NCBI GenBank assembly: GCA_049513715.1
Contig: JBEKVV010000007.1
Location: 1-64,000 of the forward strand
DNA from: Candidatus Bathyarchaeia archaeon
GTDB taxonomy: Archaea; Thermoproteota; Bathyarchaeia; 40CM-2-53-6
Direction: 5' to 3'
Length of the DNA: 64,000 nt
Shown piece by piece: positions 57,666 through 62,045 of this stretch. Under the pieces are notes generated by a model that was not told the DNA's origin, made no database searches, and saw only the letters and a list, made by a program, of their open reading frames with translations. Every line of letters begins with the position of its first letter. Position 1 is the first letter of the stretch. The position numbers and the translations under genes were made by a program.

Positions 57666-58592
57666 TTGATCGTAGCGTTAGCCGGGGGAGTTGGAGCGGC
57701 AAGGTTCCTCGAGGGCTTTGTCCGCGTGGTTCCGCAAGAAAAAGTCACAATCATAGGCAATGTCGGAGACGACATTGAGATTTACGGGCTTCATGTTTCA
57801 CCAGACTTGGACATAGTTGCGTACACATTGGCCGGGTTAGTGGATCCAAACAAAGGATGGGGATTTCGCGGAGACACTTTTCATTGTCAGGAAATTCTTT
57901 GCAAATATGGATACGAGACTTGGTTCCACATTGGCGACCGGGACATGGCCACACACCTGTATAGGACCCAACAACTTCGCAGAGGAAGTCGGCTCTCGAA
58001 AGTAACACATGACCTCGTCCGAAGCCTTGGGCTTCGAGTGAAGTTGTTGCCTGCCACGGACGATCAATTAACGACATACGTAACTTCGCGGGGAAGGCGC
58101 ATGCATTTTCAGGAATATATGGTCAAACGAGGAACGAGGCCAAGGATCGATAGGGTGATCTTCGAGGGCGCAAAATCAACCGAACCTGCTGATGGGGTTC
58201 TTGAATCAATTACCAGGGCAAAAGGTGTCCTTGTTTGTCCAAGCAATCCAATCGTCAGCATTGGCGCGGTTCTCGCAGTTCCAAAAATCAGGGCCGCTCT
58301 ACAACGTGCCAAAACGAAAGTGGTGGCGGTTAGTCCGATCATTGGTGGGAAAACTGTGAAGGGACCTGCTGACAAATTGATGAAATCACTTGGTGTTGAA
58401 CCGAGCGCGTTTGGTGTAGCTGAATGCTACCGCGACTTTCTTGACACAATCATCATAGACCGTGTTGACAGAAAGCTCGCGCCAAAGATAGAGGCTCTCG
58501 GAATCAAAGCTACCGTCACACAGGCACTCATGAAAACAATGGCTGACAAAGTCAGATTGGCTAGGCTGGCATTAAGTGAAATAGAAAGTTGA
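57666..58592 (+). CDS. cofD: 2-phospho-L-lactate transferase
   Basis: LAGGVGAARF, PDLD, GD.D.ATH, HFQEY, PSNP.VSIG, VSPIIGG..V.GPA. Confidence 0.95.
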   Translation: MIVALAGGVGAARFLEGFVRVVPQEKVTIIGNVGDDIEIYGLHVSPDLDIVAYTLAGLVDPNKGWGFRGDTFHCQEILCKYGYETWFHIGDRDMATHLYRTQQLRRGSRLSKVTHDLVRSLGLRVKLLPATDDQLTTYVTSRGRRMHFQEYMVKRGTRPRIDRVIFEGAKSTEPADGVLESITRAKGVLVCPSNPIVSIGAVLAVPKIRAALQRAKTKVVAVSPIIGGKTVKGPADKLMKSLGVEPSAFGVAECYRDFLDTIIIDRVDRKLAPKIEALGIKATVTQALMKTMADKVRLARLALSEIES

Positions 58593-59254
58593 CTTCCCAG
58601 TCACCCCAACGCCGGGCCGTGCACGCAATCGTCCCGGTAAAAGTCCTAAGCAAATCAAAGGTTCGCCTCTCGTCTCTGCTCGATTCCAAGGGGAGAGCAG
58701 ACCTAACGGTTGCCATGCTCAAAGACGTACTCTTTGCTTTGGGTAAGGCTCGGAGAGTTGGGTCCGTCACTGTTGTAAGCGCAGATAGGAAACTGCGAGC
58801 AATCACGGAGAAGTTTGGCGCAGGGTTCGTCTGGGAGGCGAGGAGGCGCGGTCTAAACAAGGCACTGATACTCGCAATCATGCAGACAGACAGAGGAGAC
58901 ACATCGGCAACTCTGATCGTGCACGCGGACCTGCCTCTGATTACGGGCAGAGATGTTGATGAATTCCTGAAACAGTCCAGTGGTTACGCGGTCACACTGA
59001 ACCCATCAAAGGATGGAGCTGGGACCAATGCTCTGCTCTTGGAAAGAGCCAGAATGATTCGGCCTGCTTTCGGCAAGAACAGTTGCGAAAGGCACATGTT
59101 GCTCGCCAAAAGGAAAGGTCTGAGTTGCAAAGTCGTGCGGTTGGAAGGGATTGGGTTCGATATAGATGAGCCAATGGATCTCCTCCAACTTATGGGGCGC
59201 GAAAGGGGTCGGAATACAGGACGGTTCTTGCAGAGCTTGCTTGGCTGGATTTGA
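58589..59254 (+). CDS. cofC: 2-phospho-L-lactate guanylyltransferase
   Basis: IVPVK....K.RLS, AML.DV, GLN.A, ADLP, GTNAL, DIDEP.DL. Confidence 0.92.
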   Translation: MTSQSPQRRAVHAIVPVKVLSKSKVRLSSLLDSKGRADLTVAMLKDVLFALGKARRVGSVTVVSADRKLRAITEKFGAGFVWEARRRGLNKALILAIMQTDRGDTSATLIVHADLPLITGRDVDEFLKQSSGYAVTLNPSKDGAGTNALLLERARMIRPAFGKNSCERHMLLAKRKGLSCKVVRLEGIGFDIDEPMDLLQLMGRERGRNTGRFLQSLLGWI

Positions 59255-59412
59255 TTCACATTGAAGCGCACTTGCTTGCTCTACGCCCGTCTAGGTCACT
59301 CGGTTCATTTTCAACCTCAACTAGCTAGTTCATGGTTCCTTGGGCTTGTTAATCTCAGTGCGTGTAATCGGGGCAAAGAAATTAAGAGATAATGCGTTTC
59401 TGATTGGGTTGG

Positions 59413-60774
59413 GTGTCTGAATTAGCCTCACCAAAGGAGTCCCACGATAAGGTGCTGCAGCTCCTGGAACAGCACCATAAGTGGTTCTCCGAATCAATCC
59501 CGTTGATAGCATCGGAGAACGTTCCCAGCCCCGCGGTTCGCGAAGCCATCGTTTCAGACTTCGGGAACCGGTACGCGGAAAAGGCCTAGGCACAAACGCC
59601 TAAGCCTCCGTATGGATGGGTCGGGGAGCGCGTCTACGCGGGCTGCGTATACATAGACCAAGTTGAGCAACTCTGCATAGACTTGGCGAAGCAACTTTTC
59701 CGCGCCGAATTTGTTGACGTCAGGCCAGTTTCAGGTGTCTGCTCGAACTTGGTCATTTACACGGTTTTCACAAACCCCGGTGACCGAATGCTCGCGTTGG
59801 CCATACCTAACGGCGGCCATATCTCCACAGGCCGTAAGGACTTCTCCGGAACCGCAGGTGCAGTCCGCGGTTTAGATGTGGACTACTTTGTATTTGACCG
59901 GAAAGAGATGAACATCGATGTCGACAAGACGAAACAGAAGATCCAGAAGATGGCTGTGGAGGAAAAGAAACCACCCAAGCTAGCTATGTTTGGTGGCAGC
60001 TTGTTCCTGTTTCCGCAACCTATCAGAGAATTGGTTGAGGCATTGCACAGCGTTGGGGCAAGCGTCGCCTACGACGCAGCCCACGTTGCTGGGTTGATTG
60101 CTGGAGGCCATTTCCAAGACCCCCTAAGAGAAGGCGCGGACGCCGTATCGTTGAGTACTCACAAGACGCTGTTCGGCCCCCAAGGAGGAGCGGTCATCTC
60201 ATTCGAAAAATACGCTGAACAGATCAAGAAAGCAACGTTTCCATCAAACACAAGCAACCACCACCTTAACAACCTCGCTGGGAAAGCCGTTGCCTTCGCT
60301 GAAATGCTCGAATTCGGGAAACAATACGGAGAACAAGTCATCACAAACGCCAAGGCGCTCGGCCAAGCATTGAACGATATAGGATTGACCGGTCTTGCGG
60401 AGCACAAGGGTTTCACGGAATCCCACCAGATCGCCGTCGATGTGACGAAATATGGTTTGGGCGGAGACATGGAGCGAGCCCTTGAGAACGCAAACATAAT
60501 CGTTAACCGACAACTGCTACCAGGTGACATCCAAGCCGGAAGGCACTACCAAAACCCCGGCGGCATTCGCATTGGAACCTCAGAGGTCACTCGCCTAGGA
60601 ATGAAGAAAAGCGATATGGTCGAAGTGGCGCGGTTCATCAAACGCGTCGTAGTAGACAAAGAGGAGCCAAAGAAGGTCAAACAGAGTGTTGCAGAGTTCA
60701 GGAAAAACTTCCAGAATGTTCACTACTGCTTCGAGAGCGCCAGGAACGCATACGAATACATCAAGATTAGCTGA
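59413..60774 (+). CDS. glyA: Serine hydroxymethyltransferase, join(59413..59580,59614..60774)
   Basis: LIASEN, RYAE|GW...YAGC, GGHIS, DAAHVAGLIAG, STHKT (PLP Lys), GIRIGT; spliced length 442 aa. Confidence 0.93.
59581..59613 (+). other. 33-nt bulge-helix-bulge intron in glyA
   Basis: 4-bp helix GCGG/CCGT, 3-nt bulges AAA and ATG, intron stem AGGCCTAGGC/GCCTAAGCCT; contains an in-frame TAG. Confidence 0.85.
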
Positions 60775-60850: not shown

Positions 60851-61027
60851 TTGTCGAAACGTGAAAAAAGGCGTAAGCGGGAAGCGCCAATGCCCGCTGC
60901 GAGCGCAGGCTTACTCCGGTTCTTCGAGGAAGAGACGCCAGGGGTAAAAGTCCGCCCTGAAGTCGTCATTATGATGTCCATCGGCATCATCGCTGTAAGC
61001 CTCTTCATGTACTTGACGTTCAAGTAA
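60851..61027 (+). CDS. secG: Preprotein translocase subunit Sec61beta
   Basis: MSKREKRRKREAPMPAASAGLLRFFEEETPGVKVRPEVV plus TM; below the ORF-track cutoff. Confidence 0.9.
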   Translation: MSKREKRRKREAPMPAASAGLLRFFEEETPGVKVRPEVVIMMSIGIIAVSLFMYLTFK

Positions 61028-62045
61028 CCGTCTCTTTGAAATCCAATAGTTTAGTTTGGGCGATCACTGGCAGAGGAGCCGCTCTGATTCCTAGCTTTCG
61101 TTCGATCTGGGACGCTAGGATGTCCGTGTACCCCGTGAAGATGTAGACCTTCTTCGGGTTAACCTCCTTCACGAATTGCATCAGCTGATCGTAATCAGCG
61201 TGGCTGCTGAGAGGAAAAGAAGTGGATCTTCTGAACGCCTGCCGAAGCGCCCAACCGGTCGTGACTGCGCGCGAGGCGTTCTTCGGGGTATCGTCCCCTC
61301 TGCCGGTGGTGATGTAAACGCATCCGCCTTTCTTCATCATGCGTTTTCCTTCAGTCGTCGATGAATCATGGTAGTCCAACTTGACACCGTTCTCATCGTG
61401 GACTTGGTTGGCGCGGGTGATAGTTGGGCTGCAAAGAACGGGGATCTTGGTGTAAACGTTGAAGAGCCTCACTAGTTCTTGGGGTTTCCCGGATGAGTAT
61501 ACTTGGAATGTGGGGGTCTTTCCTTCCTCAATCTCTGTCACAGACCACCTGACAATGTCCGCATACATGGTGCTCCTTCTTGGAAAGAGATAGGAAGGGT
61601 GCCCGTAGGTCGCTTCAACAACCAGGTAATCGCATGACTTGTGCTCAGCAGCCTGTGTTGTAAGGGTGTCTACGCAGTTAATGTCGCCAGTATAGATCGC
61701 TGTGAAGTTCGGGGCGACGACTTCATACTGACATGACCCGAGCATGTGTCCCGCGTTCAAAACTTTCACTTCGGTTTGATCGAACCGGAGCGTTTCCCCT
61801 ACTTTGACAGGCTGAGTGTTCTTGACGGTCTTCTCTTTCAGTGATTCGTAGATTCTCAGTGTTTCCTGAGTTGAGTACTTCTTTGCTGATGTGGCGAAGC
61901 CATAGGTGTGGTCGGAGTGAGCGTGAGTGACGAAGGCATGCCAATCGCCACGCAAGGGCCTGCCCGAAGTCGGATCAAAGATTAGGCGAGGGCCTCCAGT
62001 ATCAAACACTACTCCGTCAGCCCATCCAACTCTCTCTTGGCGCAA
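61020..62045 (-). CDS. MBL-fold exonuclease (beta-CASP-like, short)
   Basis: THAHSDH, AGHMLGS, YTGD, EATYG, LSSHAD. Confidence 0.88.
   Translation of the reverse strand: MRQERVGWADGVVFDTGGPRLIFDPTSGRPLRGDWHAFVTHAHSDHTYGFATSAKKYSTQETLRIYESLKEKTVKNTQPVKVGETLRFDQTEVKVLNAGHMLGSCQYEVVAPNFTAIYTGDINCVDTLTTQAAEHKSCDYLVVEATYGHPSYLFPRRSTMYADIVRWSVTEIEEGKTPTFQVYSSGKPQELVRLFNVYTKIPVLCSPTITRANQVHDENGVKLDYHDSSTTEGKRMMKKGGCVYITTGRGDDTPKNASRAVTTGWALRQAFRRSTSFPLSSHADYDQLMQFVKEVNPKKVYIFTGYTDILASQIERKLGIRAAPLPVIAQTKLLDFKETVT

Follow-up and report, generated by a model that had tools for sequence, protein, structure and literature searches.

The window, by which we mean the whole 64,000-nt stretch of DNA analysed here, carries an SHMT gene (glyA) on the forward strand at positions 59404-60774. 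Translation of this interval gave a single reading frame interrupted by one stop codon, the TAG at 59587..59589. The ORF list, Pfam and tblastn together delimit exon 1 (59404..59580, +; 59 codons as read from TTG 59404), and Pfam and NCBIfam delimit exon 2 (59614..60774, +; 386 codons plus stop), leaving 33 nt between them (59581..59613, +). The frame thus reads ...FGNRYAE, with GAA at 59578-80, then KA*AQTPKPPY over 59581-59613, and then GWVGERVYAGC from 59614. Exon 1 covers positions 4-50 of the Pfam SHMT model and exon 2 positions 51-399 (193 bits). Because model positions 50 and 51 are contiguous, excision of the 33 nt restores the protein exactly, with neither a gap nor an extra residue. 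Against the NCBIfam SHMT model NF000586, exon 2 alone scored 375 bits (cut-off 335). Directly upstream of glyA lie cofD and cofC of F420 biosynthesis (window 57666-59254), and downstream of it (60851-62045) a Sec61-beta gene is followed by a minus-strand gene of a metallo-beta-lactamase/RMMBL nuclease.

The sequence-only reading had proposed that the 33 nt form a bulge-helix-bulge (BHB) intron within the SHMT coding sequence, and inspection of the sequence showed that its coordinates for the insert, the helix, the bulges and the hairpin were correct to the base. The 4-bp central helix is formed by GCGG in exon 1 (59575..59578, +) and CCGT in the intron (59608..59611, +), with one G-U pair. It is flanked by two opposed 3-nt bulges, AAA (59579..59581, +) and ATG (59612..59614, +). 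The intron hairpin, or inner helix h' (59582..59607, +), has 10 bp with one mismatch and the loop ACAAAC; its strands are 59582-91 and 59598-607, the mismatch is a C.A at 59586/59603, and the in-frame TAG (59587..59589, +), the sole stop that breaks glyA, lies within it. The outer exon helix, already described as imperfect, consists in the window allele of the single pair C59574:G59615 with mismatches beyond. In the nomenclature for BHB motifs with flanking helices (hBHBh'), the inner helix is strong (10 bp) and the outer one has 1-2 bp, so that the element matches the relaxed form only and not the strict one. Cutting each bulge behind its second base puts the 5' splice site at 59580/59581 and the 3' splice site at 59613/59614 and yields a continuous product. 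It had also been claimed that such cuts rejoin GAA|GGA and restore the YAEG motif, which is borne out by the continuity of the Pfam match and by the joint of a contig described below. The minimum free energy fold of 59555-59640 contains both the central helix and the hairpin. Its energy is unexceptional (z = -1.20; 21 of 200 shuffles were as stable), and therefore the fold by itself is not beyond chance. What does exceed chance is the exact restoration of the protein across the Pfam match, together with the covarying hairpins found at this one site in 20 genomes. Searching 59300-59900 against Rfam yielded nothing at E values up to 1, and blastn-short of the intron against its own genome found no second copy.

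Same-site inserts were then sought in relatives. Exon 2 was searched against 40 related genomes and the own genome, which gave matches in 37 of the 41 and returned 30 loci. Both exons were placed by tblastn, and 29 orthologous loci were kept; L002 and L031 were left out as paralogous or distant. An insert was present exactly at the NRYAE|GW boundary in 16 of the 29 loci and absent from the remaining 13, which include two species of the window's own genus (G015 and G019). Within the genus, the exon 2 proteins of relatives are 80-85% identical. A second search with one genome per species gave 80 loci, whose titles without exception name Bathyarchaeia/Bathyarchaeota, Thermoproteota or an 'uncultured archaeon'. 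Both exons were found in 79 of these, and eight loci had an insert, seven of them in genomes already seen and one new (L042). A class-wide sample of 401 genomes gave 177 matches at E <= 1e-100, and the best 150 of the 177 were inspected. Among the matches listed, an open frame ending just 5' of exon 2 occurred only in four genera, all of the window's own order; four such genomes were fetched and showed inserts of 34, 32, 25 and 25 nt (one of them, G299, is the genome of L042). A phylum-wide sample, likewise of 401 genomes, gave no further insert case among the 150 matches listed.

In total, 20 Bathyarchaeia genomes carry the insert and 84 loci are precisely without it. The inserts measure 25-34 nt and represent 19 distinct sequences among the 20. 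Their length is not a multiple of three in 14 cases, and all 20 contain an in-frame stop in the frame of exon 1; 13 start with TAG, and eight end in a TAG that lies in the exon 2 frame. Given these frame-breaking lengths and stops, a readable protein needs removal of the insert at the RNA level. None of the 84 orthologous loci without the intron has a break in NRYAE|GW. Among the motif's exon-side codons, TAC and GAA are each found in 20/20 intron-bearing alleles, compared with 53/84 and 55/84 of the intron-less ones, although related genomes are not independent observations. The invariance would fit a constraint from the helix and bulge in the intron-bearing alleles.

Seventeen distinct alleles were compared with a BHB template that has a helix of 4 bp, bulges of 3 nt and cleavage behind the second base of the bulge. 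The central helix has 4 bp in 15 of them and 3 bp in G012 and G016, at least 4 contiguous pairs of the inner helix adjoin the bulge in 17/17, and the outer helix has 1-2 pairs throughout. In an alignment of 16 sequences, 90.2% of the cells are standard pairs, compared with 33-45% (maximum 44.6%) when the partners are slid by 1-3 columns. Double-sided changes occur in 11 of the 15 pairs, and all 10 pairs of the intron hairpin have changed on both sides among the aligned sequences. On four of five measures the real alignment was matched by none of 500 shuffles; on the fifth, further pair types, 10 of 500 matched it. One pair of the central helix went from GC to AU and to CG among the alleles, and whole compensated helices were also seen, namely GCCG in the exon opposite CGGU in the intron in genus g9, and likewise GCAG opposite CUGC in G299. 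The helices are thus kept by compensatory change. An alignment of the relatives' glyA had been put forward as a check of the intron, and it yielded both the presence/absence pattern (20 versus 84) and these compensatory changes.

Decay of this glyA beside an intact second copy had been named as an observation that would speak against splicing, and as to decay, what we found is the opposite. Compared with nine intron-bearing orthologues, pN was 0.095-0.117 and pS 0.70-0.84, the latter being saturated; L009 was omitted, since an ungapped comparison fails at its indel. No stop occurs in exon 2 of any of the 10 full-length copies with the intron that were read, one of which is the window's. glyA is therefore under strong purifying selection. 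The relaxed constraint of a pseudogene was not seen, as pN is far below pS and extra frameshifts are restricted to G012, G018 and G019. These 3 of 15 same-genus orthologues (L027, L029 and L030, respectively) have further lesions in glyA: a TGA and a split in G012, a 2-nt deletion in G018, and a 1-nt deletion in a G run in G019. The mid-gene splits of G018 and G019 were considered as second introns and rejected, since they are deletions at different places without any insert. Assembly indels or local decay would account for the lesions, and the fact that cbf5 of G012 is also split suggests assembly indels.

An SHMT-like paralogue is encoded at C1:353337-354365 (-). It shares 41% identity, scores 318.7 bits and so stays under the NCBIfam SHMT cut-off of 335, and has NRYTSHEGFYMG in place of NRYAEGW. 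An intron in this paralogue was considered because a search flag reported '1 TAA' inside it, and was discarded because translation gave an unbroken ORF. The flag '1 TAA' or '1 TAG' was raised inside the SHMT-like paralogue of many relatives as well. In G016, a genome 96% complete, the exon 2 query found no other SHMT homologue.

Sequencing runs were inspected for the joined form. Among the runs listed as containing the stretch, none is recorded as RNA; they comprise two with small shares (0.10 and 0.07) and additions from the same study. Four runs, X1 to X4, were compared with the junction, and X1 and X2 are marked 'RNA? (probably DNA)'. Record 4 of X2, whose library source is given as METATRANSCRIPTOMIC, is a 229-nt contig that covers 59540-59580 and continues at 59614-59801. 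Exactly 33 nt are skipped, with 0 and 1 other letters on the two parts, and the joint 59580|59614 is free of positional ambiguity. Run X4 is a Nanopore metatranscriptome from another study. Its record 7 matches from 59614 on, and the 24 letters before that point are identical to the exon 1 end of G018, which has a 30-nt intron; the congeneric species without the intron have other letters here. X1 and X3 had nothing at the junction, and no contig of the unspliced form was present in the four runs, so that no precursor/product pair was seen in them. A junction in metatranscriptome data had been proposed as a check, and this expectation is answered in part: the joined contig exists, but its run is marked as probably DNA. 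The X2 contig is either spliced RNA or, if X2 is DNA, a recently intron-less allele, and this is the main residual doubt. As judged by its letters, record 7 of X4 would represent the junction in an RNA contig of a relative.

The splicing machinery was examined by profile search. Two genes carry the EndA domain PF01974 (84.4 and 54.6 bits), each together with the N-terminal domain; they lie at C1:841585-842226 (-) and C4:134756-135433 (-). One is nearest to the PDB chains 3p1z_B, 3ajv_B, 2cv8_A and 2zyz_B (E 2.5e-41, for 3p1z_B, to 8.8e-28), which we take to be crenarchaeal enzymes. The other is divergent, with its best match to 5x89_A at 1e-18, and by eye it seemingly lacks the catalytic His. 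Together, the pair suggests a two-subunit endonuclease of the (alpha-beta)2 type. Relaxed motifs are assigned to (alpha-beta)2 and epsilon2 enzymes in PMC5829648. RtcB (PF01139) is encoded by one uninterrupted gene at C2:140350-141660 (578 bits), and at gene level the host hence possesses both EndA and an RtcB-type ligase. ARAGORN reported an intron in 27 of its 33 tRNA calls, several at non-canonical positions or implausibly long, and is unreliable for such genes; the calls would suit a lineage with many BHB introns. One call, a 97-nt 'tRNA-Pyl(cta)' at C2:419817-419913 (-), has mismatches in its anticodon stem, and its extra arm is long. It therefore looks miscalled and is probably a class II tRNA with an unrecognised intron. 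As to the gene content, the best hit for PylS in the genome was 19.1 bits (cut-off 178) and that for carB 44.8 bits (cut-off 1027).

We consider 59581-59613 to be a genuine splicing-endonuclease (BHB) intron of relaxed form in the SHMT pre-mRNA, with a probability of about 0.9. The proposal made from the sequence thus holds up on the presence, absence and lengths of the insert in relatives, on covariation, on the joined contig and on the genes for EndA and RtcB. In the pre-mRNA, exon GCGG would pair with intron CCGU, so that two 3-nt bulges flank a 4-bp helix; the intron hairpin would stabilise this structure, in which an outer helix is almost absent. A two-subunit EndA would presumably cut after the second base of each bulge, and RtcB would presumably ligate ...GCG GAA to GGA UGG.... 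The full SHMT of 445 codons should be translatable only after this ligation, and on unspliced RNA translation would end at UAG after 61 codons. We infer the end chemistry as well as the fate of the excised intron, which is probably a 33-nt circle.

Three other explanations were weighed, and they were rejected because each fails a defining test. It could be argued that the insert simply stays in the RNA, that glyA is a pseudogene or has been disrupted by a small palindromic insertion, and that the joined contig is DNA of an insert-free conspecific strain; the flag on X2, the intron-less alleles of G015 and G019, the SHMT-like paralogue and the additional frameshifts in three same-genus orthologues would all suit this account. 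However, inserts that carry stops or break the frame persist in 20 genomes, synonymous sites are saturated while pN stays near 0.10, exon 2 has remained stop-free in 10 full-length intron-bearing copies, and the helices of the insert covary. The paralogue falls under the family cut-off that exon 2 alone exceeds, and in the 96% complete G016 no other SHMT homologue was found with the exon 2 query. We therefore regard this account as highly improbable.

Translation of the 33 nt, with UAG read as pyrrolysine or by a suppressor tRNA to give SHMT with 11 additional residues, is even harder to sustain. The length of the window insert is indeed divisible by three, with one TAG inside, and a 'tRNA-Pyl(cta)' was called (C2 c[419817-419913]), but that call is doubtful, PylS stays far below its cut-off, and division by three fails for 14 of the 20 homologous inserts; moreover, the extra residues would fall inside the invariant YAEG motif, and a contig without the 33 nt exists. 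A third possibility is that ribosomes bypass the insert without any RNA processing in the manner of phage T4 gene 60. In 13 of the 20 alleles a stop follows right after the last sense codon and a hairpin starts there, an arrangement that presumably resembles the T4 gene 60 gap. Bypassing would nevertheless take off from GAA and land at ...CCGTAT/GGA or ...CCGTAG/GGA, where the alleles compared have no matching GAA; the geometry and the covariation fit a BHB central helix, for which bypassing has no need; and the joined form is present as nucleic acid. Its likelihood is next to negligible.

With BHB splicing as the preferred reading, the origin of the intron can be considered. In an SHMT tree of 96 sequences, the intron-bearing genes fall into four groups, namely genus g1, one g14 member, g10 and g9, with intron-less lineages between them; L009 is nested in the g1 clade. 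The separation of the four groups implies either a single ancient gain with several exact losses later on or more than one gain at this site. For cbf5, one gain followed by losses has been proposed (PMC2738675). A further idea gives the intron more than a passive role and combines two options, either that SHMT synthesis is gated by tRNA-splicing capacity or that the intron was gained repeatedly at one codon boundary, and we hold it to be rather unlikely. A TAG that opens the intron (13/20) and one that, in the exon 2 frame, closes it (8/20) would halt translation of unspliced RNA. That splicing might regulate one-carbon metabolism is speculative. Repeated gain, if true, would mean a site-specific mechanism of BHB intron gain in protein genes.

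BHB introns of archaeal tRNA and rRNA were reportedly described by Marck and Grosjean in 2003, and a cbf5 pre-mRNA intron of Crenarchaeota is said to have been described by Watanabe in 2002 and Yoshinari in 2006. The glyA intron is like the tRNA and rRNA introns in its 3-nt bulges flanking a 4-bp helix, in the cut after the second bulge base and in the presumed EndA/RtcB pathway. It is unlike them in its nearly missing outer helix and its mRNA substrate, which means that no tRNA body aids recognition. With the cbf5 intron it shares more features: it is short, of BHB type with a relaxed motif, situated inside the coding sequence at a strongly conserved motif, associated with an endonuclease that is hetero-oligomeric, and apparently lost precisely in particular lineages. 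In contrast to cbf5, its host is a metabolic enzyme (SHMT) and not an RNA-modification enzyme, and its lineage is Bathyarchaeia and not Sulfolobales or Desulfurococcales; among the matches listed in the genomes sampled, it occurs in no more than four genera, which belong to one order. The sequence-only reading had named cbf5 as the known precedent, in agreement with PMC7714728 and PMC2738675, the latter of which (Yokobori 2009) gives cbf5 introns a length of 16-44 bp. Another mRNA target of the splicing endonuclease is the 5'-UTR BHB intron of HVO_1309 in Haloferax volcanii, as reported in PMC7714728. That intron lies in an untranslated leader, whereas the glyA intron interrupts the reading frame, and splicing is therefore obligatory for the protein.

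The same 2020 paper names cbf5 as the only other mRNA case besides its own 5'-UTR example (PMC7714728). We found no BHB intron of SHMT or glyA in the literature that could be searched, most subscription journals lying outside the search, which is in line with the earlier statement that none was known. SHMT is thus, in the searchable literature, the second protein-coding host gene after cbf5. This second host encodes an enzyme of core metabolism, comes from a lineage that is mesophilic and uncultured, shows natural presence/absence variation of its intron, and has a contig that spans the junction; this suggests that endonuclease-type mRNA splicing is broader than thought. The 20-versus-84 pattern offers a tractable case for archaeal intron gain and precise loss. 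The element is also a compact natural substrate of about 60 nt for a relaxed-specificity EndA acting on mRNA without a tRNA body. For annotation, it should be pointed out that gene callers will shorten such genes or call them pseudogenes.

The same genome has a BHB insert in cbf5 too, which lies outside the window and is split into two frames by 19 nt at C1:415527-415545. This insert has a CCCU:GGGG central helix, a 4-bp hairpin (GACA/TGTC) and 3-nt bulges, and it sits in the catalytic GTL-D-PK motif, where excision restores GTL-D-PKVTG. A genome-wide scan for BHB motifs at split ORFs had been suggested, and an ab initio version was run that asked for 4 central and 4 inner pairs, with ORF-abutment filters and a decoy pairing rule. 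It recovered glyA and missed cbf5, and its candidates were not enriched over the decoy: 4314 versus 6811 overall, 2975 versus 4289 when stops in the insert were required, 79 versus 142 with longer hairpins, and 26 versus 64 with the codon-usage filter. The top 51 candidates resemble normal neighbouring genes whose 'intron' contains the start codon and ribosome-binding site of the second gene. As there was no enrichment and cbf5 was missed, the scan gives no count of further introns. Among the relatives, 30/30 cbf5 loci examined carry 17-21 extra nt at the same place, and at least two of these alleles (L129 and L131) show compensating exon and intron changes in the central helix. Since all 30 loci carry the insert, BHB-type mRNA splicing, as judged from these alleles, appears fixed in the lineage.
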